A stretch of 64,000 nt of DNA, from the NCBI GenBank assembly GCA_026415655.1, contig JAOAGR010000004.1, forward strand, positions 67,236-131,235, written 5' to 3'. A program made the position numbers and the translations under genes. Below the pieces are notes generated by a model that was not told where the DNA came from, ran no database searches, and saw only the letters and a program-made list of their open reading frames with translations. Each line of letters begins with the position of its first letter. The first letter of the stretch is position 1. Source of the DNA: Candidatus Dojkabacteria bacterium. GTDB taxonomy: Bacteria > Patescibacteriota > Dojkabacteria > JAOAGR01. Shown here one piece after another: positions 36,584 through 62,324 of this stretch.

Positions 36584-36676
36584 GGAGAGATACCCAAGTG
36601 GCTGAAGGGGCGGGTTTGCTAAACCTGTAGTAGGGGGAAACCCCTAGCGAGGGTTCGAATCCCTCTCTCTCCGCCA
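36584..36676 (+). tRNA. tRNA-Ser, anticodon GCT, long variable arm, CCA encoded.
   Basis: Manual fold: GGAGAGA-TA-CCC-AAGTGGCTGAA-GGG-G-CGGGT-TTGCTAA-ACCTG-[TAGTAGGGGGAAACCCCTAGC]-GAGGG-TTCGAAT-CCCTC-TCTCTCC-G-CCA. Confidence 0.85.
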
Positions 36677-38113
36677 ATCGGAACGGGCTTTGTTTTGAGC
36701 GAGTATGTCAAAGGGTTCGATCCAGTCCCAATGCAGTTTTTTATCCATCAAAACAAAGTTCGAGCCGACAATATTCAAGAGTAACTTCCTATCCATACTA
36801 TCCCCTTCACTGAATGCCCAGAATGCCTGATTAGCGACAATTATCAGTCCTTCAAAATGTTCGACCCATTTGTTTTCGGCTTTTCTACATTCCTCCAGAT
36901 TTTCGACAGCTACTAATTCATCATTTTCAATTTCAATTCTTTTTTCTTCAAAAAGTACATCATCAATTTTCTGATCAGTAAAAAGATCTACAAGTTTACG
37001 TTTTCGTTCTTGGAGTTTTCTACGTTCATTCGTCCAGTATTCCAGAGTATGAGCATGAAGATCATATTCATTTTTATTACTTTCTTTCAAAGTTCTAAGC
37101 ATTAAATCTCTAACTTCATCATCTATGGAAATACTGTCTAGTGTGTCCTGAATTTGTTTCTCCAGATCTTCAGCTCTGATGTATTTTTGCTTACATGTCC
37201 CTTTCTTTTTTGTGCACCGATAATAAGTATGTCCTTTTTGATTCTCTGCAGTAATAGCACAGCCACATTCTCCACAGGTTAAAAGACCAGTGTATGCAAA
37301 ATCTTTTTTCTCTTTTTTGAACTCATCGGGCTTTCCATTGCTTTTGATAACTTTCTGAATTTGTAAAAATGTTCCCATGCTTATCATTCTGTGGTGGTTT
37401 CCTGGATATCTCTTACCGTTATAAACCATAATTCCTGCATAAAAAGGATTTGTAAGTATTCTTTGAACCGAACTTTTTGATAATTGTTTCCCTCGAATTC
37501 CTACTAATCCCCAGCTCTTTGCTAAATCAGATATCTCTTGAAGAGTATATTTCCCTAAAGCATATGTATCAAAAATTCTTTTAACCAGATCAAACTTTTC
37601 CGGATCTGGAAGTATCTTTTTATTTACAACATCGTTTTTGTATCCTAGCAATGCCCAAGTAGGCCATTCACCATTACGGAGTTTTTCTCTAATTCCTCTT
37701 TTAACGTTTTGACTCAGATTATCAACATAATACTTAGATTGGTTAAACGCCATTCCAAGAGTGAATTTTCCTTGAGGAGTATTGTCAGCCCAGTAAGTTG
37801 GAAATTTTAACTCTTTTAAAAGTCCCACGTCCATCAAGTAAATAATTTTACCTCCATCGACAGAATTTCTAGCGAGCCTGTCTGGATGCCATGCAATTAT
37901 TCCATCTGCTTCACCTTTTTCTATCGCCAAAAGCATACTATTAAAAATCTCCCTACCTGGTTCTTTTGCTGTTTTAGACTCATGGAGAATTTTATGGACA
38001 ATCAGCTTATTCGTTTTGGCATATTCAATTAGCTCAGTTTCCTGAGCTTTAATAGACTGGATTTGCCGATTGTCTTCGTCAGTAGATTTTCTGCAATAGA
38101 TAAAGTATTTCAT
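36644..38113 (-). CDS. Large serine recombinase (integrase): resolvase catalytic domain, recombinase domain, zinc ribbon and coiled coil.
   Basis: Catalytic-domain motifs AIYCRKSTDEDNRQ..SIKAQ and DGIIAWHPDRLARN. Zinc ribbon CGECGCAI...YYRCTKKKGTC. The 3' end overlaps tRNA-Ser by 33 nt. Confidence 0.85.
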   Translation of the reverse strand: MKYFIYCRKSTDEDNRQIQSIKAQETELIEYAKTNKLIVHKILHESKTAKEPGREIFNSMLLAIEKGEADGIIAWHPDRLARNSVDGGKIIYLMDVGLLKELKFPTYWADNTPQGKFTLGMAFNQSKYYVDNLSQNVKRGIREKLRNGEWPTWALLGYKNDVVNKKILPDPEKFDLVKRIFDTYALGKYTLQEISDLAKSWGLVGIRGKQLSKSSVQRILTNPFYAGIMVYNGKRYPGNHHRMISMGTFLQIQKVIKSNGKPDEFKKEKKDFAYTGLLTCGECGCAITAENQKGHTYYRCTKKKGTCKQKYIRAEDLEKQIQDTLDSISIDDEVRDLMLRTLKESNKNEYDLHAHTLEYWTNERRKLQERKRKLVDLFTDQKIDDVLFEEKRIEIENDELVAVENLEECRKAENKWVEHFEGLIIVANQAFWAFSEGDSMDRKLLLNIVGSNFVLMDKKLHWDWIEPFDILAQNKARSDWRRERDSNPR

Positions 38114-38115: not shown

Positions 38116-38763
38116 TTAGAAATAATCCTGAATAGTAATTTTTTTAATCATCTTCCCTACGACACGGAAATTTGGATCATTCACTTTAATAGGTTTGAAG
38201 TCCTCATTCGCTGGTTCAAGAATTACATAGTCACCTTTGCGAAAAAAGAATTTTAATGTTGCATTGCCGTCAAGCATAGCGACAACAATATCTTTATTAT
38301 TAACAATTGCGTGCGGATCAATCAGAATATAGTCACCGGGAAGTATTCCGGCATCTTTCATTGAAAGCCCGTCTGCCTGTAAGGCAAAGAGGTCTTTTTT
38401 CTTTGCAAGTCTCTCGTCATATGGGAGAGGAATAAACTTTTCGGATTTCTCGATTGCCTCTTTTGGCGTTCCGCACGGAACTTCTCCAAGTAGTGGAATC
38501 CTCATCATATTCATGAAAATATTATGCTCTTGTATCCCCATCTCCATCAGAGCAGCTTTCTGTTTTAGTTTTAAAAGCTCTTCCAGGTCTATTTCAAGAG
38601 CAGGAGCAAGTCTTTCAAGTGTTTCATCTTCAGGAAAAACCTTTCCGCTTTCAATATCAGAAATGTAGCCATTATTTTTCATTCCAAGTCTTCTTGCGAT
38701 TTCGGATTGGGAAAACCCTCTATTCAGACGTATTTCTTTAAATAAATCTCCAAATGTACTCAT
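38116..38763 (-). CDS. LexA/CI-like repressor: XRE-type HTH plus S24 autopeptidase domain.
   Basis: HTH segment FSQSEIARRLGMKNNGYISDIESGK. S24 motifs GLSMKDAGILPGDYILIDP (Ser) and GNATLKFF (Lys). Confidence 0.8.
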   Translation of the reverse strand: MSTFGDLFKEIRLNRGFSQSEIARRLGMKNNGYISDIESGKVFPEDETLERLAPALEIDLEELLKLKQKAALMEMGIQEHNIFMNMMRIPLLGEVPCGTPKEAIEKSEKFIPLPYDERLAKKKDLFALQADGLSMKDAGILPGDYILIDPHAIVNNKDIVVAMLDGNATLKFFFRKGDYVILEPANEDFKPIKVNDPNFRVVGKMIKKITIQDYF

Positions 38764-39767: not shown

Positions 39768-40132
39768 TAAATATCAATTTTAAAATTAAAGATCCTTCAA
39801 AAGCTATGGTGAACTATATTTTGAACTGCTCATCAAATGCAACCGAGGAAGAGCATAAACTTACTGTTTATATTTTATCTGTTCTTGCATCTCAGGGAAC
39901 AGACTCTTTCCTGATCTATATGAATGAACTTCTTTTTGGATTCGATTTCATAGAAACAGATCGGATAAGCAAACGATTCCTGCCTGTAGGGCTGAACAAG
40001 AAACAAATACTTTCAGCTATTTATCAGATTAATAAACGAGGGATTCTAAGTATCGAATTGCAGGATACAAGCGCTTACGCTTTTTACGTTTATATAAACA
40101 ATAACCAGGAATATGAAGTTGTTCGCAGATAA
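39764..40132 (+). CDS. Hypothetical ICE protein.
   Basis: 122-aa ORF, translationally coupled to its neighbours. Confidence 0.4.
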   Translation: MININFKIKDPSKAMVNYILNCSSNATEEEHKLTVYILSVLASQGTDSFLIYMNELLFGFDFIETDRISKRFLPVGLNKKQILSAIYQINKRGILSIELQDTSAYAFYVYINNNQEYEVVRR

Positions 40133-43100
40133 AATTAAATCAATTTTACTCATTGGAGTTCTTGTGCTGATTCCACTTTTATCAAGTGGAAAAGCAAGGG
40201 CGGATGAATTTTATATAAATGGAGGTCTTGCTGATGATTGCCATGTAGGTTTTACTACCTCAATTTCTTACGGAGCATTACCCGCTCAAAGTACAGGAAG
40301 TGGTGGAATAACTTATGATGCTGCACATATCAGAGGGGCTAGCGGAAATGGATACCCGGAAGCAACAAGATTTGCTCCTGATCTTGGAACTCTACTTTAT
40401 CCAAATGCAAGAAGATATCCAGATATTGCAACAGAAATTGTTGTACCTCCAAACAGCAGAGTGGATATTGGTTTTTATGACCATAACTATTCCGGTCATA
40501 ATACATGGCTTTATGATGCTTATCTTTTTCTTTCCAGAACGGATACAAATGCTGGAGATTTAGGGAGACTTGGTGCTGGTGGAAACTATGGAACTTTAAG
40601 CTGGAGAGAAACATCAGGAACAAAAAATAGAAGCGGAAGGTACGCAACGCTTCCTCTCAATTACAATGCTTTAACTGATTCTAATCCAAATTACAGCAAT
40701 CAAACAGGAAGAACTATTTATTCCTTCACAACAATCCAGCCGATTATTGTTCAAGGAAGAAACGTAACTCCAGAATTTACAGGAGGAGGCAATATGAGAT
40801 TAAGATATGATTTGACCGTCAGAAATCAATCCGCATATAGCCTTCCTAATGTAAGTGTATCGCAAAATCTTCCAAATGGACAAACTTTTTCATCGACATA
40901 TAACTTTGCACCATCAGAAACAAAAGTAATCACATATTTTGCAGACATGGGAACGAGTTATCCAACTCAAATTATTTCTGCCCAGGCAGAAATTTATGAT
41001 CCAAACTTTCATAAAGAAACAGCTTCAGTAAGTGCTAGTGGAGAAAGAGGTATTATTGTCAGAAGAGGCGATGCTGGCGCTCCTGCTAATTGGTCGGCAA
41101 ATCAGCCAGATTATATTGCTTCTGGGGATTATATTTCAGTAACATTAATCCCATATAGAACGTATTCTCAACAAAATACAACAACAGTTCCTCCTCAACT
41201 CTCGGTAATTAAAAGAGTTTCCGACTCTAATGAATCAAATGTTCAAACAAATACTGTAGAGCCAAATGAAGATTTTACTTATACCATAAGTGTTAGCAAT
41301 GCAGGTGGGATTGCAAATAATGTAAGAGTTACTGATGACTATGATCAAAATGACTTAACGATAGTAAGTACTAATCCAGTTGGTGTGGATAATGCAGATA
41401 TTATCACCTGGAACTTAGGAAATATGGTTAATGGGGAGACTAGAACTTTGACTATAAATGCCAGATCAAAGACTGGATTTGCTCATGGCACACATCAAGC
41501 TCCAAACAATGTTAGTGTGATAGCTGATAATCATAATCAGATTCAGGATAATACCCAAACAAATATTGTTGCTCAGGCAAATTTAATTATAGAAAAAACA
41601 GTAAGCGATTCTGATGAATCTAATGTAAAAAACAATAATTTGCAGGGAGACTCAAATGATTCAGCCAGAACTATCTCTTATAACATCAATGTCAGAAATA
41701 TTGGTACAGCAGACGCAACAAATGTTGTTGTTACTGATGATTATCAGGAAAATAGAATGACTATCATTAATGCTGATGGTGGAACATTAAATAATGGAGT
41801 TATTACTTGGAGTATTGGTACTTTAGCAATTGGAGAAAGTAGAACATTCACAGTTACAGCACTTTTAAATCAAGGACTTCCTGATTTAACACAAGTGTTA
41901 AATACAGCAACAGTAGATTCCAATGAAACAAACCCAATTAGTGATACAGCAACAACTCTTATTCATTCTCCTGTTATTCAAGTAGAAAAGAATTCTGATA
42001 AATCAGAATATCTTCCTGGAGAAACAGTTAAGTGGAGTATAACTGTTAGAAATGTTGGTACAGGAAACGCTTACAATGTAAAAGTCATTGATGATCTTCC
42101 AACAAATGGGATTAAAGAGATAAAAAATATTTCTGATGGAGGAATTTTCTCCAGCTCGAATAATCAAATCTACTGGGTAGCATCTACACCACATTTTATT
42201 TTGAATGGCTCTTATCAGCCGGATTCAAGTTCTACTTGGGGAAATGAAAAAACTCTTTCTTATGATACCGAGCTTATACAAGTTTTTGATGAGATTGAAA
42301 TCGATTTACTAAATAAAGTCAGAGTAGAAGACTCTGCAAGAGTTATTGAAGCCGAAAAAACCGTGAGAGTAAATTCTCCAAAATTAGATTTGATAAAAGA
42401 GCAAATCCTTCCGGAGTCTGTCACTCCCGGTCAACTGATCACCTACACTTTGAATTATAAAAACTCAGGATCAGGAGCTTCTATTGATACAAGAATTACC
42501 GACACTCTTCCAATTGAAGTCGATTTTGTAGATTTTTTGGATATAGAAGGAGTTTACAATAAAGATACACATACTATTGTATGGAATTTAGGGGATATTC
42601 AACCTGGAATTGAAGGAAAAGTATCATTCAGGGTAGTTATCAAAATTCCTACTCCAACTAATACTCGGATCAGGAATATTTCTTTAATTGAATCTCCAAT
42701 TACAAAACCTGTTGTTTCAGAGGTTATTACCGTCACAACAAATTCTTGTTGTATGGGAGGCATGGTATGGGACGATAATAATAAGAATGGGATTTTTGAT
42801 GAAGATGAGGATGGAATCCAAAATGCAAGAGTAACTTTAACATGGGATAAAACTGAATTTACTAAAAGTGATTCAGTGGAAATCTTAACTGATGAGACTG
42901 GTCATTATGAATATACTGGCTTGCCTTATTTTATTCCCATTACTGTAGAAATCATAAAACCTGCAGGCTTTGATGAATTAACTACCAAAACTACTTTCAG
43001 GCTTGTTCTTTTACCTCCAAATAAGGATGGAGTTATTGAAGATTATGAAAAAGATGGTATTCGCTATTTAACCGCTTCCGGTTGTATCAAATTCTTAAAT

Positions 43101-43232
43101 GCAGGAGTCTACCGGGATATTGTAATCGCTGATACCGGACATTCTGTATTAACGCCCTTAATTTTCGGACTAGTACTAATTTTAATTGGTGCTTCAGGTC
43201 TGCTGTTTTATTTAACCAGGACAAAAGAATGA
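40113..43232 (+). CDS. Cell-surface adhesin, 1039 aa: signal peptide, multiple DUF11 (conserved repeat) domains, an SdrD-B-like domain, and a C-terminal sortase-type sorting signal (IADTG, hydrophobic helix, RTKE).
   Basis: Four DUF11-like repeats, each ending in the xxxVxVxDDxx motif: ISVSNAGGIANNVRVTDDY, NINVRNIGTADATNVVVTDDY, ITVRNVGTGNAYNVKVIDDLP, and YKNSGSGASIDTRITDTLP. SdrD-B pattern VWDDNNKNGIFDEDEDGIQNARVTL...TDETGHYEYTGLP. C-terminal IADTGHSVLTPLIFGLVLILIGASGLLFYLTRTKE. Confidence 0.75.
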   Translation: MKLFADKIKSILLIGVLVLIPLLSSGKARADEFYINGGLADDCHVGFTTSISYGALPAQSTGSGGITYDAAHIRGASGNGYPEATRFAPDLGTLLYPNARRYPDIATEIVVPPNSRVDIGFYDHNYSGHNTWLYDAYLFLSRTDTNAGDLGRLGAGGNYGTLSWRETSGTKNRSGRYATLPLNYNALTDSNPNYSNQTGRTIYSFTTIQPIIVQGRNVTPEFTGGGNMRLRYDLTVRNQSAYSLPNVSVSQNLPNGQTFSSTYNFAPSETKVITYFADMGTSYPTQIISAQAEIYDPNFHKETASVSASGERGIIVRRGDAGAPANWSANQPDYIASGDYISVTLIPYRTYSQQNTTTVPPQLSVIKRVSDSNESNVQTNTVEPNEDFTYTISVSNAGGIANNVRVTDDYDQNDLTIVSTNPVGVDNADIITWNLGNMVNGETRTLTINARSKTGFAHGTHQAPNNVSVIADNHNQIQDNTQTNIVAQANLIIEKTVSDSDESNVKNNNLQGDSNDSARTISYNINVRNIGTADATNVVVTDDYQENRMTIINADGGTLNNGVITWSIGTLAIGESRTFTVTALLNQGLPDLTQVLNTATVDSNETNPISDTATTLIHSPVIQVEKNSDKSEYLPGETVKWSITVRNVGTGNAYNVKVIDDLPTNGIKEIKNISDGGIFSSSNNQIYWVASTPHFILNGSYQPDSSSTWGNEKTLSYDTELIQVFDEIEIDLLNKVRVEDSARVIEAEKTVRVNSPKLDLIKEQILPESVTPGQLITYTLNYKNSGSGASIDTRITDTLPIEVDFVDFLDIEGVYNKDTHTIVWNLGDIQPGIEGKVSFRVVIKIPTPTNTRIRNISLIESPITKPVVSEVITVTTNSCCMGGMVWDDNNKNGIFDEDEDGIQNARVTLTWDKTEFTKSDSVEILTDETGHYEYTGLPYFIPITVEIIKPAGFDELTTKTTFRLVLLPPNKDGVIEDYEKDGIRYLTASGCIKFLNAGVYRDIVIADTGHSVLTPLIFGLVLILIGASGLLFYLTRTKE

Positions 43233-43366: not shown

Positions 43367-43708
43367 ATGAAAGAAAAAGTTATCAAAACAACAAAAAAAT
43401 TCAGTGCTATTTTCGCAACATTCCTTTTTACAACGCTTCTATTCAGTTCAACTGCTTTCGCAGCCACTGATCCAACATCAGAGATTTCAAATATTATTGA
43501 AAGAATCGTAAAAATTGTTACTCAAGTTGGTTCAGGAATTCTGATACTTTTTATCGTAAAGGATGCGTTTGAAATGCTTCAAAATAAAGATAATCCGGCT
43601 TATAGAAATATTCTTCTAAGGGATATTTTTATGCTTATCATTGCAGCTATCTTCTTATTTAAACCAGATTTTATTTTACAAGCAGTTAAATTTATAGCCA
43701 ATGTTTAA
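43367..43708 (+). CDS. Small pilin-like protein (signal peptide plus two hydrophobic helices), possibly VirB2/TrbC-like.
   Basis: 113 aa. Signal peptide FATFLFTTLLFSSTAFAA. Two hydrophobic stretches, SGILILFIV and FMLIIAAIFLF. Located at the head of the T4SS gene block. Confidence 0.4.
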   Translation: MKEKVIKTTKKFSAIFATFLFTTLLFSSTAFAATDPTSEISNIIERIVKIVTQVGSGILILFIVKDAFEMLQNKDNPAYRNILLRDIFMLIIAAIFLFKPDFILQAVKFIANV

Positions 43709-45425
43709 ACTATTTTCAAAATTGAATCCTGTAGGAGAAAAAGTTAAAACTCTCCTACGAAAATATCGTAGTTCAGATATTGAAGTTAAAAAACAAATTC
43801 GCTGGATTGTTGCTTTGGCATCAATTCTTCTAGCTGTAATTTGTATTGCAATTGGTATTACTAATTCAAATTCGCCTCAAGCAACCAAACAGGAAATACG
43901 AATAGAACAAAGAGAGGATTTGCCAAAAGGCTTGCCGAATCCAATTGATCTGGTGAATCCGTTCAAGAGTTTTCAGGAAGGGATCATTGATGGAGTTTCG
44001 GAAATCATCAAACAAACTGTGGGGCTTTTTGATGACTATGTAGGTTTTACCCCAAATATTGCAAGAAATGATGGCGAAATTAAAGACTCCTCAGGTAAAA
44101 CGATACCAATGGGATTCGATAAATTTTATCGGGTAACAATGAATATTGCATGGGCAATACTGCCATTGGTGATAGTTTTATATGGTGCATTTCTCGCTCT
44201 CGAAGGTGGTTTTAGAGGAGTGCAACTACTTCAACAAATTTCAAAAAAAGTATTACTTTTTGTAATTGCGATGGTCGCTATGAGATTTGTATTTGGATTA
44301 TTTATAGATCTTAATAATGGGATTAACTCGTATGTTCTTCAAAACCTTTTGGGAAGCCCGAAACTTTCTGATGCTATTCTTAACTCTCTTGGTCTTGCAA
44401 TTTCAGACAATAAACTTACATTTTCAATAGCAGGTGTTTTAAATACCTTTGGAGAAATAATCCTTTGGATTGGATTGTTTTTTATGCTTATGACTTTGCT
44501 TTTTCAATTTGTCATAAGATTTTTCCATCTATTGCTTCATGTGTTAATGTTTCCAATTGTACTAATTATCAGTTTGTTACCAGGAGGCGAACAATTCTTT
44601 AAAAATTATGTAGAAGAACTTTTAAGATCGCTTTTCCTTCAGCCAATATTTCTTGTTGGACTTGCAATTGTTATCCAAATTATAAGTAGCGTAAATCAGC
44701 CTGTTCCTAAAGTAATTCTGGGACTTGGTTCACTTGCATTTATGAATCTTATTCCATCAATCGTTAATCGTTTTAGCGGAATCTTGTGGGGACTCGGAGG
44801 TTCAGTTGCTGGTGGATTGCTTGCTACTGCGACTGTCGCTCATGCAGGAAAACTAAAAGATGGTGTCGTCGCAGGTTTGTCAGGAGGGCAGACATCATCA
44901 ATTAGAAATCTTGCAGGCAAAACAATAGGAGAAACAATTATTTCAAGATTCCCTTCCAGACCATCTTTAAGTAATAAAGCTGGTACTGGAACTAATTATC
45001 AAAACTCTAAATTAACATATCAGCCAAGTGAACCTACAAAAGAACTTTATCCAGTCAAAAGCTCTCAAAACGGAATGAGGCAATTTGCAGAAAAACCTTC
45101 AAATCCAAATTCAAAGCCTTATACAGTTCATATGGGAAGAACTTTTGATACAGGAAGTAAGGAACACTGGAATAATCTGACTTCGTGGTATCGATCGCAA
45201 AAAGACTTAATGTCGGGTAAATCAGAAGATCAGATTTCCGATTATCTATCAAATGCTTCAAATAAAAGGGAAATTATTAATGAAGCAAATAATGCAGGTT
45301 TCTTCACCCAAAATGGTATCAGAACAATAAAATTACCATCTGAAGATGCTGGAGAAAATTCTTATTTACAAATACCAAGACCAAAGAAAAAAGATGCAGG
45401 AGATAGTACCACCCAAATTAAATAA
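43701..45425 (+). CDS. Polytopic membrane protein, VirB6/TrbL-like (PrgH/TcpH-type), with a hydrophilic C-terminal extension.
   Basis: 574 aa with five to seven hydrophobic helices followed by a roughly 180-aa polar tail. Lies between the pilin-like gene and the VirB4-like gene. Confidence 0.5.
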   Translation: MFKLFSKLNPVGEKVKTLLRKYRSSDIEVKKQIRWIVALASILLAVICIAIGITNSNSPQATKQEIRIEQREDLPKGLPNPIDLVNPFKSFQEGIIDGVSEIIKQTVGLFDDYVGFTPNIARNDGEIKDSSGKTIPMGFDKFYRVTMNIAWAILPLVIVLYGAFLALEGGFRGVQLLQQISKKVLLFVIAMVAMRFVFGLFIDLNNGINSYVLQNLLGSPKLSDAILNSLGLAISDNKLTFSIAGVLNTFGEIILWIGLFFMLMTLLFQFVIRFFHLLLHVLMFPIVLIISLLPGGEQFFKNYVEELLRSLFLQPIFLVGLAIVIQIISSVNQPVPKVILGLGSLAFMNLIPSIVNRFSGILWGLGGSVAGGLLATATVAHAGKLKDGVVAGLSGGQTSSIRNLAGKTIGETIISRFPSRPSLSNKAGTGTNYQNSKLTYQPSEPTKELYPVKSSQNGMRQFAEKPSNPNSKPYTVHMGRTFDTGSKEHWNNLTSWYRSQKDLMSGKSEDQISDYLSNASNKREIINEANNAGFFTQNGIRTIKLPSEDAGENSYLQIPRPKKKDAGDSTTQIK

Positions 45426-46151: not shown

Positions 46152-47984
46152 ATGAAATTCATTAAATATTTTAAAACTCAAACAAAGTTTGCAGTAAAAG
46201 ATTTAAACTCTAGGATTGAGAAAGTTGCAATCTCTGCTTCAACTCCTAAAAGATCAAGAGATCCTGTTAAACCACCTTCAAATTTAAGTCCTGCTTACGA
46301 ATTATCAGATAAAGGGAAATTTCTAAAAACAGAGAATTTATTCCAGGAATCATTTGTAGTTTCTGAGTTCCCACAAATCATTTATCCCAATTGGCTTTAT
46401 GACTTAATGAATTATTCTGAACCTCTTGTAATTTCCCAGTTTATTAAACCAATCGACTCAGGGAAAGCATTAACGGGACTTCGCAATCGTATTACAAATC
46501 TTTCTGCACAATATTACGACAGACAGGAAAAAGGGAAGCTACACACAACAGATCTTGAACAGGCGATAAGAGATGCCAGAACTATTGAAGATTCAATAGT
46601 TAGAGGAGTAGAAAAACTTTATTCCATGGGAATGTATGTCAATTTGGCAAGTGAGGACAAAACCGAACTTGATAAAAGTTCAAAAGTTTTAAAAGATTTT
46701 GCTTATGCAAAACAGCTAAAAGTTCACTCTCTTGCTTATAAACAAAAAGAAGCACTTGAAACATTTTTACCAAAAAATATAAATTACATAAATGAAGAAT
46801 TTTTCCTCACAAGTCAAAATGTTTCCTCATCTCTTCCCTTCACATCTGCTACTTTAAATGATCCAGAAGGAATTTTTTATGGAATAACAGTTGGAGGATC
46901 AAAGGTAAGATTTGATAGATTTTCCAAATCCTCAAAAAACTTCAATGGAATAATTTTTGCTACTAGTGGTGCTGGAAAAAGTTTTGCTGCAAAGCTTGAG
47001 GCATATAGAAGTTTGTTCCGTGGAATAAAAGTTTTTGTAATCGATCCGGAAGGTGAATTTAGAGCTTTAAGTGATGCTGTTGGCGGTACTGTTATTGATA
47101 TAAATCCAGAAAGTAAGATTAAAGTTAATCCACTTCAATTTTTCTCTACCGGGAACGATTCCAAAGAGATTATGAGAACTCACCTTGGAGTTGTGAAAGG
47201 CTTACTCAAGATATGGCTTTCTGATGATTCTTATAATCGTGGGCTTGTAAGTAAATGTGTTAATCAAGCTTATCAAAATGCTGGAATTATTCTGGAAGAT
47301 CCTTATACATACAGTAATCAGCCACCAACAATCACTGATCTTATAAATGTATTTGAGAAAAACGGTGATGAAGGTAAAGTTATTGCAACAGAACTATTGG
47401 AATACTCCAAAAAAGGTGAGCTTGGTGATCTTTACGATAACCCAACAAGTTCGGAGGTCGATTTTAATGCACCTATAACGGTTTTTAATATTCAAAAAGT
47501 TCCAGATCAGGAAAAGCAGGCAGCTATCTTTTATCTTTCGAATTTTATCTGGCAAAAAGTACTTGCCGATAGAGAAAAAAAGATCTTGATTATTGACGAA
47601 GCACATCTTCTTTTAAAAGAGGAGTCATCGGCAAATTTTATAGAAAATTTGGTAAGGAGAGGAAGAAAGTATAATTTAGGAGTCATTTGTATTTCTCAGG
47701 ATGTAGATGATTTTTTAAACAGCCCTCAGGGAAGCGTTATAGCAAAAAATGCTGATACCGCATTAATTTTATCTCAGAAAAAACAATCAATACCTCATCT
47801 TGTTAAGACATTTGATCTCTCAAATGCTGAACAGGATTACATTACGAGACTTTCAAAAGGTCAGGCTCTTTTTGTAAAGGGAAATATTCATTCACATTTA
47901 TATATTTTTCCTACACCCCATGAAAAAATCCTGTTTTCTTCAAATGCGGTAGATCTAGCGAGAAAGGAGAAACAAAATGCCTGA
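46152..47984 (+). CDS. VirB4/TrbE-family conjugation ATPase (PrgJ/TcpF-like).
   Basis: Walker A GIIFATSGAGKSFAA. Walker B KKILIIDEAHLLL. ISQDVDDF at the C-terminus. Fits VirB4 C-terminal ATPase architecture. Confidence 0.75.
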   Translation: MKFIKYFKTQTKFAVKDLNSRIEKVAISASTPKRSRDPVKPPSNLSPAYELSDKGKFLKTENLFQESFVVSEFPQIIYPNWLYDLMNYSEPLVISQFIKPIDSGKALTGLRNRITNLSAQYYDRQEKGKLHTTDLEQAIRDARTIEDSIVRGVEKLYSMGMYVNLASEDKTELDKSSKVLKDFAYAKQLKVHSLAYKQKEALETFLPKNINYINEEFFLTSQNVSSSLPFTSATLNDPEGIFYGITVGGSKVRFDRFSKSSKNFNGIIFATSGAGKSFAAKLEAYRSLFRGIKVFVIDPEGEFRALSDAVGGTVIDINPESKIKVNPLQFFSTGNDSKEIMRTHLGVVKGLLKIWLSDDSYNRGLVSKCVNQAYQNAGIILEDPYTYSNQPPTITDLINVFEKNGDEGKVIATELLEYSKKGELGDLYDNPTSSEVDFNAPITVFNIQKVPDQEKQAAIFYLSNFIWQKVLADREKKILIIDEAHLLLKEESSANFIENLVRRGRKYNLGVICISQDVDDFLNSPQGSVIAKNADTALILSQKKQSIPHLVKTFDLSNAEQDYITRLSKGQALFVKGNIHSHLYIFPTPHEKILFSSNAVDLARKEKQNA

Positions 47985-48645
47985 GGAAATAAAACCGAAT
48001 TTAATAGCAGGGTACTTCTTTCTATTTTTAATAATTACTTTTGTCTTTGGAGCTGGATTCCTGATTGAAAGTTATTTTAACGGGAATCTAAATAAATTTT
48101 TTCCAAAAGTAGAAGATCAAATTATTACTCAAAAGATAGAAGGAGAAGTCCAATTTCCTGTTAGTCCAACTGAGATTATTACTGTTACTCCGAGCCCGGA
48201 AGTAACTTCACTACCAACTCTATCAGCTCCCTCTTCTACTCCAATTCCTACAGCAACAGCTCAACCAACATCTGTCCCCACAACGAAGCCCCCTGTTGTC
48301 ATTACTACAACCAAACCTTTACCTACGGAAACTTCAAAGCCTCTTTCTTCTCTTAAATTGAGTTGTTCTATTACAAATACACAGCCAAAAGCAGGTCAAA
48401 ATGTCTCTGTAAATTGTTTTGCAAAAGATCAATCTGGAAATCCAGTTAATAACGTAATTTTGAAGCTTTCTATTGTATGGCAATCTGGCTCGCAAGTATT
48501 AAATATGCCTTCGAGCAATAGTTCTGGCACTTCACAAATTACAATTGTTGTTCCTGAAGGAAATAAGGGCATTGTAACGGCAAACATAACAGCAGAAAAA
48601 GACGGGCTTAAGGTAAATACGAATTTTACTTTAAATATTCAATAA
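47977..48645 (+). CDS. Membrane-anchored protein with a PT-rich linker and a C-terminal Ig-like beta domain. It sits where the VirB8/TcpC-like component is expected.
   Basis: N-terminal TM segment YFFLFLIITFVFGAGFLI. Linker TVTPSPEVTSLPTLSAPSSTPIPTATAQPTSVPTTKPPVVITTTKP. Confidence 0.45.
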   Translation: MPEEIKPNLIAGYFFLFLIITFVFGAGFLIESYFNGNLNKFFPKVEDQIITQKIEGEVQFPVSPTEIITVTPSPEVTSLPTLSAPSSTPIPTATAQPTSVPTTKPPVVITTTKPLPTETSKPLSSLKLSCSITNTQPKAGQNVSVNCFAKDQSGNPVNNVILKLSIVWQSGSQVLNMPSSNSSGTSQITIVVPEGNKGIVTANITAEKDGLKVNTNFTLNIQ

Positions 48646-48650: not shown

Positions 48651-49718
48651 ATGGAAGAAAACCAATTATTAAATAAATCAAAAAACCTTGCTTCCAAAGC
48701 TGATGGACTGGCTGGAGATGCTCTTGCTATGGCTTCAAACAAAGTCGCCCCTGTTGCAGGTCCAATTCTGGTTCAACTTCTGTGGAAAAATAAAATAACA
48801 ATTACCTTGGTTATATTATCAATGATACTTTTAATGTGTTTTAGCTTTGAAAGCTTATCACTTCAAGCACTGGCAGGATCAAGAGGTCTGATAGAGCAAA
48901 TTTCTGCGACTCATAAAGAGTGTATTCAGAAAGCTAAAGAAAAACATAATATTGAGTTTGAGCTTTTAGCGTCATATGGGAAAGTAATTTCTGATTTTGA
49001 CGAAAAATATATAGGGACTGGCAAAGGGTTCTTGGAAATAACGGATGCTGATTGGGAAAAGTCATCAACTGATGGTGATGAGGACGGGGAAATTGAGGCA
49101 ACAAGTATCTGCGATAATTATTTTACTCTTGCAAATATTCTGTCTCAAATCCAAGGTGACAGTGAGAAAAAAATAGATGCTTATCCATACCAGAAAAAAG
49201 CGGAAGTTAAGGAATGGTACTTGATATACAAAGGCTTGATAATGATACCTTATGGAAATCCTGTTGGATTAATAAGGTCAGATCTTGTAACCGTTTCTTC
49301 GGGCTATAACGTAGTAAGAATTATTAATGGAAAAGAGAATGTTCATAGAGGTATTGATCTTGTTCCATCCGGAAAGTGGTATGAAGAAAATCCGGGGAAA
49401 ACCTCAAAAGATTCGATAGTAAATTCAATTATTTCGGGAGATCTTTCAAATACAGTTGATGACGCTGGTGCTTTATGTTCTACAGTTACAAATGAACTTT
49501 TTAAAGTTATTAACTGTCATTGTGATTCATTTATTGCTACTGATGGAGCAAAGGTTGTTTATGGATCTCCACTTTGTTTTATGGGAACAACTGGAAACTC
49601 CACAGGCGTGCATGTTCATGTTGAGATCTCTCAAAAGGACGAGAATGGCAAATGGCAGAGGATTGATCCAACTCCTCTTGTATTTCCAGTAAATAATTAT
49701 GCAGGACAAAACCAATGA
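48651..49718 (+). CDS. M23/LytM-family peptidoglycan endopeptidase with an N-terminal membrane anchor. Probably the T4SS cell-wall hydrolase (VirB1-equivalent, PrgK/TcpG-like).
   Basis: M23 motifs HRGIDL and GNSTGVHVHVEI. Confidence 0.75.
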   Translation: MEENQLLNKSKNLASKADGLAGDALAMASNKVAPVAGPILVQLLWKNKITITLVILSMILLMCFSFESLSLQALAGSRGLIEQISATHKECIQKAKEKHNIEFELLASYGKVISDFDEKYIGTGKGFLEITDADWEKSSTDGDEDGEIEATSICDNYFTLANILSQIQGDSEKKIDAYPYQKKAEVKEWYLIYKGLIMIPYGNPVGLIRSDLVTVSSGYNVVRIINGKENVHRGIDLVPSGKWYEENPGKTSKDSIVNSIISGDLSNTVDDAGALCSTVTNELFKVINCHCDSFIATDGAKVVYGSPLCFMGTTGNSTGVHVHVEISQKDENGKWQRIDPTPLVFPVNNYAGQNQ

Positions 49719-50490
49719 AAAAATTAAAATTCTGGATAAGTCTTTGCAACAGGGCTTTTCACAGATTCCAAGACCGGTACTTAAAGCCAAAGGACTTTCC
49801 AGAAATGCAAAATGTCTTTATGGGCTTTTGCTTGATTATGCCTGGCAAAGCGGAAGTTGCTTTCCTGGACAAAAAAGATTGGCAGAAGATCTGGATGTAT
49901 CAGAGCGAAGTATTCAGAGAGATCTTGAAGAACTTCGGGACTTTGGGCTTATCAAGTGGATTAGACGTGGTTATCAAATGACAAATGAATATCAGATTTT
50001 ATCTTTGGATTTTTTACTTCAATCAGATATGTCAAAAACGTCAGATCAAGAGGTGACAGATCTGGCTTCTCAAGAGATGACAGATACGTCGCACAAAGAA
50101 TATAACGTTGAAAATACCCAGAATAAAAATACTCAGTCGTCAACGTTGGAAACGAAAACGAATAATTTAAATCTTTTTGACAAGGAAGCAGTTGAACTTG
50201 CAACAGAATTAAACGATCTCAAAAGCATTCGGTTTTATCAGAAAATAATTAATCAAAGAAATAAAGGGGAAATCGCAATTGAAGATTTTAATACCGCTCT
50301 TGAAGATACACGAAGAGTTAAAAGATGTGATGAAGTCGATGGTACAAACTTTTTAAAAAATCCTGCTGGTTGGTTTGTTTCTGTTTTACAGAAACTCACC
50401 AGACGAAGACAGGACAAACTCCGGCAGGAAGAAGTTAAAACCAAGATGGATGAATTGAAAAATAAGTTTTTAGGAAAAGCAAAACTATGA
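49699..50490 (+). CDS. HTH_36-type winged-helix protein, replication-initiator/DnaD-like, of mobile elements.
   Basis: FSQIPRPVLKAKGLSRNAKCLYGLLLDYAWQSGSCFPGQKRLAEDLDVSERSIQRDLEELRDFGLIKW. Confidence 0.5.
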   Translation: MQDKTNEKIKILDKSLQQGFSQIPRPVLKAKGLSRNAKCLYGLLLDYAWQSGSCFPGQKRLAEDLDVSERSIQRDLEELRDFGLIKWIRRGYQMTNEYQILSLDFLLQSDMSKTSDQEVTDLASQEMTDTSHKEYNVENTQNKNTQSSTLETKTNNLNLFDKEAVELATELNDLKSIRFYQKIINQRNKGEIAIEDFNTALEDTRRVKRCDEVDGTNFLKNPAGWFVSVLQKLTRRRQDKLRQEEVKTKMDELKNKFLGKAKL

Positions 50491-53075
50491 GTCAGGAGTT
50501 AATAGAAAATTTAATAAAGTTTGCATTCATTTCTTTGAGCATAAGTTTAATTTTTACACTAAACTATTTTCGCAAATTATATTTTGCAAAAGTCAGAGCA
50601 AAAAAAGAAAAAGGATTTCTGATACAGATTATTCCACCCAAATACCAACTGGAAGATGCGGATCAAAGAGGAGTGCGTTTTGCTCTACAACGATTTATCG
50701 ATAATTTAACAGCAAGCGTAAAAGATTCCCGAATCTCTTTAGAAATTTTTGCTGATAATTCGGAGATTAACTTTCTGGTATGGACACCTAGTAAAAAGAT
50801 CGCTGAACTGGTTAAGCTTAATTTATACAGTACTTACAATGACCGAATAAAAATTAAGGACGTAGAAACTGATCCAATCAATTCTTTTTCCGTTGATTCT
50901 GTTGTGAACGAATATAAAACCTCCAAGCATGATATTTACATGCTTATGGATCTTAAAGACTTTGAATCTGTAGATCCAGTCCAAGATATTTTGGGAGCAA
51001 TGAGGGGACTTCAAAATGACGATAAGCTTTTATTCCAAATTACAATTAAGCCATCAAAACTTGACGTAATTGCATTACAAAAAGCAAAAGAGAATTTCCG
51101 ACTCCGTAGATCAGAAATAACCTGGCTGGAATTATTCCTGCAAAAAATCAGTTCGTATTTGATTTATTTTGTGCCACTTTTACCAATTTTTATTATAAAA
51201 ATATTTGGTGGAATTCTAGCTTTTTTTAAAGGAGGAAATATAAACCAAGATCCAATCTTTTTGCTTCCTGATAGTGATCCAAGGAAAGTACTTGTTGAGA
51301 AAGAAGAGTTAAGTAACTTTAACAGCCGAATATCAGAAAAATATAAAACTTCATTTTCTACGAATATTAGAGTTATTGCTGAGGGTGAAAGAAAGGACAT
51401 TTTGCTTGATGGATTTGAGCAAGCTCTCGAATCCATGAAATCAGAAACTCAAAACAGACTTATCCGTAAACATAAAAGCAATTCCTTTGATTTGCGAACC
51501 CGGCTTGTTTATCCAGAAGATTCCCTTTTCCCTTTTTACAAAGAACTTTGCACTTCTCAAAATACACTTTACTCAAGGGAAATTTCTATGATCTACCATG
51601 TGCCTTTTAAGATTGATGATCCGGTGATAACAAGCTTTGCCTCTCCTGACCTGCCAGCAAAAAAACTTTTTAAAGATAAAGTTAATATTTCTGATCTTTA
51701 TATTGGAATTAACAAATCCAGAAATATTGAATCAAATGTTTTTTTAAGTGAAGAGAATCGTAAAAGACATATTGTAATAAACGGTCAAACCGGAACAGGA
51801 AAATCCACCATTATGAAAAACTTTGTTTTGCAGGATATTGATGAAAACTTGATTGGACAAAATAAGCGAGGTTTAATGCTGATGGACCCGCATGAAGATT
51901 TCTTTATTGATATTTTAGAAAGACTGCCAGAAACGGAAATGAATTTAGAAAAGTTTATTGCCTGGGATACAACAAGCGAGGAATATTATTTTGGATTTAA
52001 TCCACTTTATGCAGTAGGGCTTACAGAACGGGAAATTGACTTAATTGTTGACTCGAATTTTAAACTGATAGAAAAAGTAATCCGCAGGATTAATCCAGAA
52101 TCAGGAATGGGTATGACCGGAAAGCCAATGCTGATAAATGCCATGAAAACCCTTATGGTTTTTCAAAATGAATGGCTGGAGAAAGTTGGAAATACAGATG
52201 CAAACGTAGAAATTATCAAGAAACATGCACCAACACTTCTTGATGTACGTAGTTTATTTATCAGTGACGAAGAATGCTCGACAATTCTATCTTTTATTCC
52301 ACTGGAAAAATATGAAGGACTCAGGACTTTCTGGGAAGATATTCTGCCCAATTACAAAGAATCACAAAATTGGTCAGAAATCAGACAAGGTTTTGATAAC
52401 AAAATTTCTCAAATTCTTACTGGTATTTTGTTTTTCACATTTGCTCAAAGTCAAAGCTCGATAGAAATATCAGAAATTATTCGGGAGTCAAAAATACTGC
52501 TTGTAAATTTGTCATCTAAAAATATTGGTGAAGAAGGTATGGGACTTCTTGGATCACTTCTTATGTCAAAGGTCTGGTTTGAGGCAAAAAAGATAGAAAA
52601 AAGTAAACGTAATCCATTTGTTGTTTATGCTGATGAATTTCAGAATTTTGCTAACAGTGATTTTGCCAGTGCATTATCTGAAGCAAGAAAATTTAAACTT
52701 GAACTTATACTTGCTCATCAATTCTTTCAGCAACTTCCCGAAGAAGTCTTTCACGCAGTTATGGGTAATGTAAAAACAAAAATTTATTACAGATGTGGAC
52801 TTGAGGATAGCGAAATGATTGCAAAAGAATTGCAGGGAAGACTTCTTCAAAATGAAGTCATGGAGATTCCGGAATTTCATGCAAATATTAAAGTCGGTGA
52901 GGATGTGTTTTCTGTCTATGTCCCTGTGGAAAGGAAACCAACAAAGAGTGAAATTGCAGTCCAAAAAATAGTCGAAGATTCGTATAAAAAATATGGGCGA
53001 ACAAGGCTTTCTGTAGAACAAAATATCATCAATAGAAGGAACTGGTTCAGGGACGGATGTGAGCCATACGGGTAA
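50487..53075 (+). CDS. Type IV coupling protein (VirD4/TraG/TcpA-like ATPase) with an N-terminal membrane region.
   Basis: N-terminal TM helices. Walker A INGQTGTGKSTIMKN. Walker B FVVYADEFQNFAN. 862 aa. Confidence 0.7.
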   Translation: MSQELIENLIKFAFISLSISLIFTLNYFRKLYFAKVRAKKEKGFLIQIIPPKYQLEDADQRGVRFALQRFIDNLTASVKDSRISLEIFADNSEINFLVWTPSKKIAELVKLNLYSTYNDRIKIKDVETDPINSFSVDSVVNEYKTSKHDIYMLMDLKDFESVDPVQDILGAMRGLQNDDKLLFQITIKPSKLDVIALQKAKENFRLRRSEITWLELFLQKISSYLIYFVPLLPIFIIKIFGGILAFFKGGNINQDPIFLLPDSDPRKVLVEKEELSNFNSRISEKYKTSFSTNIRVIAEGERKDILLDGFEQALESMKSETQNRLIRKHKSNSFDLRTRLVYPEDSLFPFYKELCTSQNTLYSREISMIYHVPFKIDDPVITSFASPDLPAKKLFKDKVNISDLYIGINKSRNIESNVFLSEENRKRHIVINGQTGTGKSTIMKNFVLQDIDENLIGQNKRGLMLMDPHEDFFIDILERLPETEMNLEKFIAWDTTSEEYYFGFNPLYAVGLTEREIDLIVDSNFKLIEKVIRRINPESGMGMTGKPMLINAMKTLMVFQNEWLEKVGNTDANVEIIKKHAPTLLDVRSLFISDEECSTILSFIPLEKYEGLRTFWEDILPNYKESQNWSEIRQGFDNKISQILTGILFFTFAQSQSSIEISEIIRESKILLVNLSSKNIGEEGMGLLGSLLMSKVWFEAKKIEKSKRNPFVVYADEFQNFANSDFASALSEARKFKLELILAHQFFQQLPEEVFHAVMGNVKTKIYYRCGLEDSEMIAKELQGRLLQNEVMEIPEFHANIKVGEDVFSVYVPVERKPTKSEIAVQKIVEDSYKKYGRTRLSVEQNIINRRNWFRDGCEPYG

Positions 53076-53307: not shown

Positions 53308-54192
53308 ATGAAAAAAATAAGATTAAATAAAAATCAGATAGAGGTATTAAAAATTATTCAGAGTTTTAGGTATATTCCAATGAAGGTATTGATGAAGATT
53401 GTATTTGAGAGGGAAGTTTATGGGCATTTATCGGGACTGAGTAGAGGACTTCATAGATTGGAATATTCTGGATTAATAAAAAGTTTTTTATACGGTAATA
53501 ATTGGAAAGTAGTTTTTATCACGAAAAAAGGAGCAGAAAGCTTAGCTCTGGAATCAGGAATTCCAATTAAAGATATTTCCATTCCAAATCTAAGCCACAA
53601 AGTAGGTTTTGCCACTCTTGAGCATACAGTAAAAATAGCCAACCTTTATCTCGAACTCGCAATGGAAATACCCGCATTTCCAGATTTCTCACTAATAGAA
53701 TGGCTAGGAGATCAACAGGTATTTTTGCAGTACAAATTCCGTTCAGTAAGAAATGGAAAAACAATAAAAAGAAATCTGGCACCGGATTCTTTTTTCCTGC
53801 TTCAAAAGGATGGAGTCAATAAACCTTACTTTCTTGAATACGATACCGGTACTATGGACAGGGAACAGCTTGTACAAAAATTCCTGCGGTACTTTGAATA
53901 CTTTGTTTACGGGGAGTGGAGAGAAAAGTTCGGGACTTTTCCTTCAATTCTTTTCTTGACGGAAAGAAAAGAACAATCAATGCAAAAGTATTTGCAGGAG
54001 CCGGAAATTCCTTTGGAAAAAGCTCTTGCTCTAAGATCCAAATTTTCTGACTCCTCAAATATTGTCTGGAAGGCAATAGGCATGTCAGAAAATATTAAAA
54101 GCATAAATTCCAAAGAAATTTATGACTTTTTAAAAACTCAAATTATTTTTAATTATACAAATCAATCATGGACAAAAGAATTATTAAAATAA
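53308..54192 (+). CDS. Replic_Relax (replication-relaxation) family-like protein with an N-terminal winged helix. Candidate ICE relaxase or mobilisation protein.
   Basis: LNKNQIEVLKIIQSFRYIPMKVLMKIVFEREVYGHLSGLSRGLHRLEYSGLIKSF. Size and N-terminal wHTH are consistent with PF13814. Assignment from memory only. Confidence 0.45.
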   Translation: MKKIRLNKNQIEVLKIIQSFRYIPMKVLMKIVFEREVYGHLSGLSRGLHRLEYSGLIKSFLYGNNWKVVFITKKGAESLALESGIPIKDISIPNLSHKVGFATLEHTVKIANLYLELAMEIPAFPDFSLIEWLGDQQVFLQYKFRSVRNGKTIKRNLAPDSFFLLQKDGVNKPYFLEYDTGTMDREQLVQKFLRYFEYFVYGEWREKFGTFPSILFLTERKEQSMQKYLQEPEIPLEKALALRSKFSDSSNIVWKAIGMSENIKSINSKEIYDFLKTQIIFNYTNQSWTKELLK

Positions 54193-54743
54193 TATTTGCT
54201 CTGATCTCATGTATCTTTATCGTGATTGGAGTTTATTTAGCTTACAACGTTTTTTACCCTGAGATTTATTATCAGAAAAACCTTAAAAACAACATTACAC
54301 CTCCCCCCATTACAGAAAGCGAATCACCAAGCTCAGTATCTACCCCAGCCCTGGATCAGGAAAATATTCCTGATCGATTGATAATTCCCAAAATAGGTGT
54401 GGATATGGAGTTAGGAACTGATCCAAAGACATTAGATAAAGCAGGGTGGGTGCAAAACCTCTATCCTGATAATTCTGTAATGGTTATTGCAGCCCACAGG
54501 TTCGGCTGGATAGGCATGCCTAATGACCGGAAAGTAACTCATACTCTTTATAATATTAATAAGCTGGTAATTGGGGATGAGGTGATTATCCAATGGAATG
54601 GAGAGAGGAAGATTTATAAGATTAAAGATATAACTGAGGCTACAAATAACCCTTCTATAAAAGACGGTGAGGTTTTGATTTATACTTGTAAGTCTTTAGA
54701 TTCGGAATTAAGAATCTTTTTAAATTTAGAATATGTATTATAA
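54168..54743 (+). CDS. Sortase (N-terminal TM anchor; catalytic His, Cys and Arg region).
   Basis: LIIPKIGVD, VIAAHR (His), and LIYTCKS (TLxTC-type Cys). 191 aa. Confidence 0.7.
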   Translation: MDKRIIKIIFALISCIFIVIGVYLAYNVFYPEIYYQKNLKNNITPPPITESESPSSVSTPALDQENIPDRLIIPKIGVDMELGTDPKTLDKAGWVQNLYPDNSVMVIAAHRFGWIGMPNDRKVTHTLYNINKLVIGDEVIIQWNGERKIYKIKDITEATNNPSIKDGEVLIYTCKSLDSELRIFLNLEYVL

Positions 54744-57070: not shown

Positions 57071-57121
57071 AATTAGAAGAGGGATGATATGTCCTTTTAC
57101 TATATTAATAACAACATTAAT

Positions 57122-57165
57122 TTGATTTGTAGTAGTTTCGTGATATAATTGTATAACGTGTACGT
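57122..57165 (+). promoter_or_regulatory. Promoter TTGATT-16-TGaTATAAT followed by the operator-like near-palindrome TAACGTGTACGT (ACGTGTACGT) upstream of the cupredoxin-like gene.
   Basis: -35 at 57122-57127, extended -10 at 57141-57149, and motif at 57154-57165. The same 12-mer in the opposite orientation occurs upstream of copZ at 58013-58024. Confidence 0.4.
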
Positions 57166-57188
57166 CCCATATAGGTATTTAAATTATA

Positions 57189-57668: not shown

Positions 57669-57673
57669 TATTA

Positions 57674-57946
57674 ATGATGAAACACAAAGAATCCAGTCAA
57701 AAAGAAAAATCAATCCTTGCATCTAAAAAAGCTGCAGGTACAGTAAAGAAAATTATAGAAATGCTTGAAGAAGATCGGTATTGCATTGATATTATTCAAC
57801 AGATTGATGGAGCCATCGGGCTCTTAAAAAGTGCAAGAAATCAAATCCTAGATGATCATTTTGATCATTGTTTGCTTGAAAAAATTCAAGAAGATAAGGA
57901 AAAAACTTTGGATGAACTAAAAAAGGTTTATAGAATAAGTAACTAA
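57674..57946 (+). CDS. csoR: CsoR/RcnR/FrmR-family metal-sensing transcriptional repressor (Cu-type C-H-C ligands).
   Basis: EDRYCIDIIQQIDGAIGLLKSARNQILDDHFDHCL. The conserved Cys, His and Cys align with CsoR. Confidence 0.8.
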   Translation: MMKHKESSQKEKSILASKKAAGTVKKIIEMLEEDRYCIDIIQQIDGAIGLLKSARNQILDDHFDHCLLEKIQEDKEKTLDELKKVYRISN

Positions 57947-57957
57947 TGTGAATTGTT

Positions 57958-58024: not shown

Positions 58025-58036
58025 GATCAAAAACAT

Positions 58037-58264: not shown

Positions 58265-58271
58265 AACAAAT

Positions 58272-59330: not shown

Positions 59331-59354
59331 TTTTAATTCTAAGCATATAAACAC

Positions 59355-62323: not shown

Positions 62324-62324
62324 T

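Follow-up and report, generated by a model that had tools for sequence, protein, structure and literature searches.

A 64,000-nt stretch of contig JAOAGR010000004.1 from a Candidatus Dojkabacteria bacterium (hereafter the window, in whose coordinates positions are given) carries an element, supported by its gene content as an integrative and conjugative element (ICE), that encodes both a 1039-aa fibrillar adhesin ending in a sorting signal and a minimal sortase. We consider it probable, at about 0.65, that adhesin and sortase form a dedicated, self-contained surface-display pair of an ICE family circulating among Patescibacteria (Candidate Phyla Radiation, CPR). By analogy with known systems, the most likely role of the adhesin is to stabilise cell contact for the type IV secretion system (T4SS) of the element.

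Patescibacteria, which live attached to other cells, account for a large part of bacterial diversity, and experiments on them are very few. That mobile elements encode sortase-anchored adhesins is a known principle. What is new here is the CPR setting, a dedicated sortase outside the known classes, a signal with Ala at P3 outside Actinobacteria and without the class E determinants, and an adhesin alongside a VirB2-type pilin in a monoderm-type T4SS. The element family looks distinct and widespread and, judging from its genes (tRNA-targeting recombinase, repressor, coupling protein and Replic_Relax), appears fully conjugative. The pair shows how CPR bacteria may grip partner cells during DNA transfer, and the adhesin is a candidate cell-contact molecule for them; the compact sortase (~120-aa core) with [IL]AxTG bears on how P3 is read and might find use in protein ligation, and the element is a natural vehicle that might be adapted for CPR genetics.

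The adhesin and its sorting signal

Among the large genes of the T4SS block, the adhesin gene N3A71_01960 (40113..43232, +) comes first; it starts with ATG, overlaps the upstream orf122 by 20 nt and encodes a protein with the standard fibrillar-adhesin layout of signal peptide, distinct N-terminal domain, repeats and sorting signal. The first-pass annotation, made from the letters and their translations, had described this 1039-aa open reading frame (ORF) as having a signal peptide, at least four DUF11 repeats and an SdrD-B domain, and the searches bore this out, with four DUF11 stretches and an SdrD_B match (PF17210) of 41.4 bits at residues 881-954 against a cut-off of 29.7.

The protein ends in ...YRDIV-IADTG-HSVLTPLIFGLVLILIGASGLLFYL-TRTKE, followed by the stop codon. 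The sorting pentapeptide IADTG (aa 1005-1009; 43125..43139, +) precedes a hydrophobic helix of 25 aa (aa 1010-1034) and the charged tail TRTKE (aa 1035-1039), which together were assigned from the sequence to 43140..43229 (+), and FLNAGVYRDIVIADTGHS is a candidate sortase substrate peptide. Homologues were collected from 5.8 billion protein clusters, giving 22 full-length sequences at 32-61% identity; the family consensus [ILF]A[QDE]TG with a hydrophobic stretch and a K/R tail closes 22/22 of these and likewise all copies in the related loci described below. A1006, T1008 and G1009 are invariant columns of the alignment, and the helix sequence drifts. The earlier proposal that IADTG, a hydrophobic helix and a basic tail make up a sorting signal is thus upheld. 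No match to the LPXTG anchor model TIGR01167 was obtained for the adhesin at E <= 0.01, the residue at P3 being an invariant Ala and not Pro, and neither a YPK pilin motif nor an E-box was found in it.

It could be supposed instead that the helix is a plain membrane anchor, that xAxTG lies in a folded domain and that the sortase serves proteins encoded elsewhere. The position of the motif directly after a conserved structured segment, with no linker, would agree with this, as would the missing TIGR01167 match and the confinement of the substrate search to the window and the loci. The invariance of A-x-T-G ahead of a canonical helix and basic tail in all homologues speaks against it, and so do the distant homologue P0036, in which the preceding segment is unrelated yet VAKTG, helix and basic tail are retained, and the joint presence of adhesin and sortase in 14/14 loci. 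Moreover, the window and each related locus contain no real ORF with a sorting signal other than the adhesin, and no other candidate substrate occurs within 10 kb. A plain transmembrane (TM) anchor without a conserved pentapeptide, an outcome that the first-pass annotation had envisaged, fails because the pentapeptide is conserved in all homologues and the adhesin is the only signal-bearing ORF, and we hold this explanation to be very improbable.

At the other end of the protein, the signal peptide (aa 1-30; 40113..40202, +) has its predicted cleavage after ARA, the N-terminus MKLFADKIKSILLIGVLVLIPLLSSGKARA|DEF being signal-peptide-like, and the mature N-terminus D-x-F-Y is kept, with D31, F33 and Y34 invariant in the homologue alignment. 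There follows an orphan N-terminal domain that we call the tip (~aa 31-200; 40203..40712, +); it bears conserved motifs, including VPPN and GD..RLGAGG, and apart from a weak DUF11-like stretch nothing in Pfam or the PDB resembles it. Conservation over the first ~200 residues (~30% identity) is among the lowest in the adhesin. A degenerate DUF11-like unit (~aa 229-264) precedes the stalk, in which four DUF11/CLIPPER immunoglobulin (Ig)-like repeats (~aa 360-880; 41191..42752, +) were delimited by Pfam and alignment. DUF11 matches with E = 1.3e-42 and 145.1 bits (cut-off 24.6), the related Pfam models DUF7507, DUF7619 and DUF7927 match as well, and the only NCBIfam match is the DUF11-type repeat TIGR01451 at 95.8 bits. 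No polymer-adhesin (GbpC-type) domain was found, Pfam giving DUF11-related models and SdrD_B only.

Lys, Asp and Asn recur in each repeat at the expected spacing (K367/D408/N465, K495/D542/N597, K626/D660/N734 and K762/D797/N855), a pattern consistent with intramolecular isopeptide bonds in the stalk repeats. Homologues range from 1039 to 1384 aa, the long ones having a 304-aa insertion in the stalk after aa 752. The idea of a hypervariable tip was tempered accordingly, as the N-terminal domain is alignable in all homologues and the length differences stem from the stalk insertion.

The SdrD-B-like domain and its conserved continuation to aa 1004 (...YLTASGC.NFLNAG.YRD..; 42753..43124, +) were located by Pfam and by a PDB match: the region aligns to the solved S. 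aureus SdrD with E = 1.8e-5, including the calcium-loop motif WxDxNKNGIxDxDExGI. The continuation abuts the sorting motif with zero spacer, and the 50 residues upstream of the motif are the best conserved part of the adhesin (64%). The adhesin has four cysteines, Cys43 (40239-40241), Cys879/Cys880 (42747-42752), a pair that opens the SdrD-B domain, and Cys991 (43083-43085); three are invariant across homologues and one is nearly so. Disulfides are possible.

A chromosomal Dojkabacteria DUF11 protein of 628 aa (P0038; L026, 10001-11887) was also noted, which ends in LARTG, a hydrophobic stretch and RR, with a longer tail; neither a sortase nor a T4SS was found near it in L026. Its LARTG hints that Ala at P3 may be in wider use in the Dojkabacteria lineage.

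A minimal sortase outside classes A-F

The sortase gene N3A71_02010 (54168..54743, +) overlaps the upstream Replic_Relax gene by 25 nt and encodes 191 aa, in which a Pro/Ser-rich linker connects an N-terminal TM helix to a catalytic barrel of ~122 aa. The family alignment places the catalytic residues at His110 (54495-54497, +), Cys174 (54687-54689, +), within LIYTC, and Arg182 (54711-54713, +); all three are invariant within the element sortase family, and across 103 wider relatives His110 and Cys174 remain invariant and Arg182 is at least 90% conserved. Against PF04203, the Pfam model of the sortase superfamily (peptidase C60), the single sequence scores 25.2 bits, just below the cut-off of 26.6; close homologues bear a precomputed PF04203 match, and the family profile matches solved sortases at E = 1.9e-5. 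An AlphaFold (AF2) model built from the 103 sequences predicts an eight-stranded barrel with a mean predicted local distance difference test score (pLDDT) of 91 and a predicted template modelling score (pTM) of 0.82; it superseded a 9-sequence model that was dropped at pLDDT 51.8. The identity of the protein as a sortase rests on this family profile and predicted fold together, and the claim of the first-pass annotation that the ICE has its own sortase with the His, Cys and Arg hallmarks is confirmed by the invariant triad and the predicted barrel. A profile search of 1.84 billion representatives returned only 12 clusters at E <= 1e-30, followed by a gap down to other, longer sortases at ~1e-21, from which we conclude that these enzymes are a small, distinct, minimal lineage.

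Neither its sequence nor its predicted structure places the sortase in any of the classes A-F. Single-sequence searches proved unusable for classification, the best phmmer match in the PDB having E = 0.72 and the NCBIfam models of classes C, D and E each scoring ~18 bits: 18.6 bits for class C (NF033745, cut-off 160), 17.9 bits for class E (NF033747, cut-off 160) and 17.9 bits for SrtD (NF058671, cut-off 140). Among the class A, B, D, F and GN models only that for SrtD appeared besides C and E, below its cut-off, and no NCBIfam class model reached E <= 0.001 with any member of the sortase family. When the family-only profile was compared with solved sortases, a class A enzyme was the best match (E = 1.9e-5), followed by classes C and D, and class E was the weakest among the solved sortases listed (E ~0.9); with the wider profile, class C is favoured (1.1e-24) and SrtE1 stands at 4.9e-11.

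Two hallmarks have been described for class E, a beta3/beta4 Tyr that reads Ala at P3 and an insertion of ~21 aa between beta6 and beta7 (PMC5148588). A Tyr in the beta3/beta4 loop (Y99; loop 98-104) is found in the window sequence alone in the locus alignment and recurs in the closest homologues; in 13/13 partner sortases of the related loci this position is occupied by L, S, V, F or N, yet these enzymes are paired with xAxTG substrates. The beta6/beta7 loop of the predicted model takes up residues 159-168, i.e. 10 aa, without the class E insertion. The third class E trait, LAxTG substrates, would be matched by the putative substrate, since the sole neighbouring one bears [ILF]A[QDE]TG in every element. 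Because the class E Tyr and loop insertion are absent, the presumed Ala-at-P3 preference is class E-like in motif only. The suggestion of the first-pass annotation that specificity is class E-like therefore holds for the motif and does not hold for the enzyme. The nearest non-element sortases (L024 and L025) are chromosomal, and no signal-bearing ORF was found within 10 kb of them.

As the adhesin gene lies directly upstream of virB2 and the unusual conservation of the segment ahead of the motif points to extended recognition, a class C-like assembly role might be envisaged, in which the sortase, instead of or besides linking the adhesin to peptidoglycan, joins it covalently to a protein, be it in a polymer, the VirB2 pilus or a T4SS surface component. 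The predicted structure has no class C lid, however; strand 1 is preceded by a variable Pro/Ser linker of low pLDDT that has no conserved DP[FWY]. The lack of a YPK motif and E-box in the adhesin, the single signal-bearing ORF per locus and the class A enzyme as best match of the family-only profile argue in the same direction, and we regard such an assembly role as improbable. The class C enzyme with other substrates, which the first-pass annotation had named as the contrary case, was accordingly not found.

Adhesin and sortase across related loci

VirB4 of the element (46152..47984) has more than 80 relatives in CPR assemblies at ~70% identity, after which identity drops to ~34%. A scan anchored on VirB4 collected 17 genome loci and 4 metagenome loci from Patescibacteria, the metagenomes adding only one locus that reaches the sortase position. 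The loci share one gene order: serine recombinase, LexA-like repressor, small helix-turn-helix (HTH) and other genes without an assigned function, adhesin, VirB2, VirB6 and orf267, then VirB4, Ig-domain membrane protein, M23 peptidase, HTH protein, putative coupling ATPase, Replic_Relax and sortase. The adhesin is present in 18/18 loci reaching its position and the sortase in 14/14 reaching its own (12 distinct elements plus the window); three of the sortase-bearing loci are copies of one element, and the four genome loci lacking a sortase stop short of its position. Wherever it is present, the sortase gene overlaps the Replic_Relax gene, and no second sortase was found in the window or in any related locus.

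A chromosomal-type CPR T4SS locus, whose VirB4 is 33% identical to that of the element, is without adhesin, sortase, coupling protein and relaxase-like gene; as a separate observation, a DsbA gene adjoins the chromosomal-type T4SS in L022. A more distant module with the same layout (L027, 10001-24092) carries HTH genes, an adhesin, TrbC, TrbL, a 783-aa VirB4, M23 and a single-stranded DNA-binding protein, its adhesin being a 1363-aa DUF11 protein that ends in VAKTG, a helix and a basic tail. Near-identical copies of the element VirB4 (L002, JAHKLX010000081.1; P0069 and P0122) have been deposited as Micrarchaeota (archaeon) and Delongbacteria, labels that are probably binning errors, with transfer across lineages as a possible alternative.

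The anchored adhesin might serve mainly to bind the host of an epibiotic CPR cell, with the ICE spreading this trait and conjugation proceeding through the VirB2 pilus. Cultivated Patescibacteria are obligate epibionts that depend on their surface machines to grow on the host (PMC12857230, PMC11623550), a contact pilin is already encoded by the element, the stalk varies in length, and the low conservation of the distal ~200 residues is what diversifying pressure on a receptor-binding tip would lead one to expect. Set against this, the adhesin gene heads the T4SS block in every element while the cargo differs, translation of the sortase is coupled to that of the relaxase-like gene, and the chromosomal CPR T4SS examined has no such adhesin. 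A primary function in host attachment is judged unlikely, though it is the main alternative to the favoured role.

The ICE might move between CPR lineages a portable cassette of partner specificity for these ultra-small epibionts, consisting of a tip-variable adhesin and an unclassified minimal sortase whose recognition of Ala at P3 evolved independently of the actinobacterial class E. We offer this as a speculative idea that is rather unlikely. As such a cassette carries its own anchoring enzyme, it would work in any recipient, and it could, if real, change which cells the recipient sticks to, whether hosts or mating partners. In a stronger version the sortase would join the adhesin to the VirB2-type pilus or a T4SS surface structure and not to peptidoglycan, which, if true, would be a hybrid of a Gram-negative-type pilus and Gram-positive-type sortase chemistry.

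Proposed mechanism

For the surface-display pair that we favour, the following sequence of events is envisaged. Sec would export the adhesin, the signal peptide being cut after ARA, and the C-terminal helix and basic tail would hold the protein in the membrane. The membrane-anchored sortase would then use His110, Cys174 and Arg182 to cleave IADTG between Thr1008 and Gly1009, and an amine of a peptidoglycan precursor, probably meso-diaminopimelate (DAP), would resolve the thioacyl intermediate, leaving the adhesin covalently attached to the wall. The rigid stalk of four DUF11/CLIPPER repeats and SdrD-B, probably stabilised by isopeptide bonds and calcium, would present the fast-evolving orphan tip for binding to another cell; with contact so stabilised, the T4SS of the element (VirB2, VirB6, VirB4 and coupling protein) would transfer DNA. 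Cleavage at T|G, a peptidoglycan acceptor and a role in mating-pair formation are what we infer for the adhesin; what the data show are its anatomy, the conserved signal, the catalytic triad and fold of the sortase, the strict co-occurrence and synteny of the two genes and ICE-type integration beside tRNA genes. A murE gene in the chromosomal flank scores 337.7 bits, above the NCBIfam cut-off, with higher scores for DAP-type models than for the Lys-type model; a wall and a plausible acceptor therefore exist. As the element carries its own sortase, the module would be independent of any sortase in the recipient genome.

Several points weigh against this interpretation. No spacer that could span the wall separates the motif from the last folded domain, an atypical arrangement for wall-anchored proteins, and the census of [IL]AxTG proteins and sortases spans only the window and the related loci. 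The preference of the sortase is read from its neighbour alone, because no class of known specificity can be assigned to it. In the distant L027 module, whose adhesin ends in VAKTG, no sortase was found within 10 kb downstream. A role of the adhesin in mating is not required by logic, because a VirB2 pilin provides contact in other systems, and we know of no CPR organism in which cleavage, acceptor or surface display has been demonstrated. As to the element itself, no direct repeat of the tRNA end that could mark att sites was found within 36.4-64 kb, and its right end was not found within the window and may lie beyond it. Serine recombinases require a short core only.

Comparison with known systems

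Gram-positive conjugation systems use LPxTG adhesins for mating-pair formation, and PrgB-type adhesins are presumed to hold donor and recipient together (PMC12857230). The aggregation substance PrgB of pCF10 is, like the protein described here, element-encoded and provided with a signal peptide and a tripartite C-terminal sorting signal. PrgB relies on the housekeeping sortase of its host and on LPxTG, whereas the present element has its own sortase and a signal with Ala at P3; also unlike PrgB, the adhesin has a DUF11/CLIPPER and SdrD-B stalk with an orphan tip and accompanies a T4SS with a VirB2 pilin. The resemblance to PrgB drawn in the first-pass annotation accordingly survives as a functional analogy but not as homology, the polymer-adhesin domain being absent and the stalk being of the DUF11/CLIPPER type.

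SrtD of the tcp locus of pCW3 is likewise a sortase associated with a conjugative element. It is, however, a recognised class D enzyme of a Firmicute acting on LPxTG-type signals, whereas the CPR enzyme has ~190 aa, is paired with [IL]AxTG and reaches no class threshold. An adhesin gene, cnaC, lies in the same region of pCW3. According to the passage of PMC8225981 that cites Revitt-Mills 2021, C. perfringens SrtD is needed for efficient transfer of pCW3. The class E sortases SrtE1 and SrtE2 of Streptomyces differ in that the CPR enzyme is not a member of their class and occurs outside Actinobacteria.

DUF11 now bears the name CLIPPER and has been shown to build the stalks of fibrillar adhesins, with isopeptide bonds stabilising it (bioRxiv 10.1101/2025.04.25.650565). 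The DUF11/CLIPPER adhesins and S. aureus SdrD share with the present protein the tandem repeats, SdrD-B calcium loop, signal peptide, N-terminal domain and sorting signal; unlike them, it has a tip without known match, is encoded in a mobile T4SS operon of the CPR and has no spacer before the motif. TIE(pLS20) is a stalk adhesin that the B. subtilis plasmid pLS20 encodes and needs for efficient conjugation in liquid (PMC8092201), but it has no sorting signal, is sortase-independent and is built with a thioester tip and CnaB stalk domains.

The chromosomal T4SS of Patescibacteria (Quinonero-Coronel 2025; Wang 2023) resemble that of the element in being monoderm-type with VirB4 and VirB2-like pilins, and their VirB4 is only ~33% identical to the element VirB4. 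A VirB2/TrbC-type pilin in a monoderm-type T4SS is held to be unusual outside Patescibacteria (PMC12857230). The published survey of CPR T4SS reported no adhesins such as PrgB and found relaxases to be rare, with sortases unmentioned; it concluded that the systems are mostly not conjugative and, having used MOBscan classes, asked whether very different relaxases exist (PMC12102498). The Replic_Relax protein (PF13814; 53308..54192, +; 56.9 bits), which we regard as a candidate relaxase, stands at the relaxase position in every element and is a candidate for such a divergent CPR relaxase.

The mobile element and its surroundings

A large serine recombinase with Resolvase, Recombinase and Zn-ribbon domains (36644..38113, -) is the presumed integrase and overlaps the 3' end of tRNA-Ser(GCU) (36584..36676, +), the presumed integration site. 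In 5/5 visible cases the recombinase ORF extends at its 3' end ~30-40 nt into a tRNA gene, namely tRNA-Ser in the window, tRNA-Glu in three of the loci L012-L015 and tRNA-His in the remaining one (L012 268-342, L013 544-615, L014 386-460, L015 425-499). The recombinase subtypes (24-30% versus ~70% identity) differ along with the tRNA target. At ~36 kb the GC content rises from 0.27-0.33 to 0.33-0.38.

The recombinase is followed by a LexA/CI-like repressor with HTH and peptidase S24 domains (38116..38763, -). Directly after the adhesin gene comes a VirB2/TrbC-type pilin identified by Pfam (43367..43708, +); further on lie a VirB6/TrbL-like channel protein with a weak Pfam match (43701..45425, +) and the VirB4 ATPase already mentioned (+), a clear match that served as anchor for collecting the loci. 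Kept after virB4 in all elements is a 222-aa protein (47977-48645) whose N-terminal TM helix is joined through a long Pro/Thr/Ser-rich linker to a C-terminal Ig-like domain, with weak matches to Big_1 and MG2; it may be a wall-spanning T4SS component. Further downstream are an M23 peptidase-like protein, the putative T4SS wall hydrolase (48651..49718, +), and a putative coupling ATPase with weak TrwB and DUF87 matches (50487..53075, +). An ICE, as the first-pass annotation had the adhesin and sortase residing on, is therefore supported by the tRNA-overlapping serine recombinase (5/5), the LexA-like repressor, VirB2, VirB6 and VirB4, the putative coupling protein and Replic_Relax. Promoter and terminator scans gave fewer matches than shuffled sequence and were uninformative on operon structure.

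In the chromosomal part of the window, the products of 14323-19015 are large and probably secreted, namely a beta-helix protein of 1103 aa and a CAP-domain protein of 458 aa, the latter ending in a hydrophobic C-terminus without a sorting motif. The region downstream of the sortase (54902-63422) is probable cargo and encodes a CopM-like metallochaperone, several membrane proteins and two P1B ATPases of the CopA type, of which the second has a CopZ-like metal-binding domain at its N-terminus; the copper-resistance genes look like cargo. A chromosomal RecA is encoded at 12417-13457 (+), and, given this RecA and the S24 repressor of LexA/CI type, SOS-type induction of the element is plausible.

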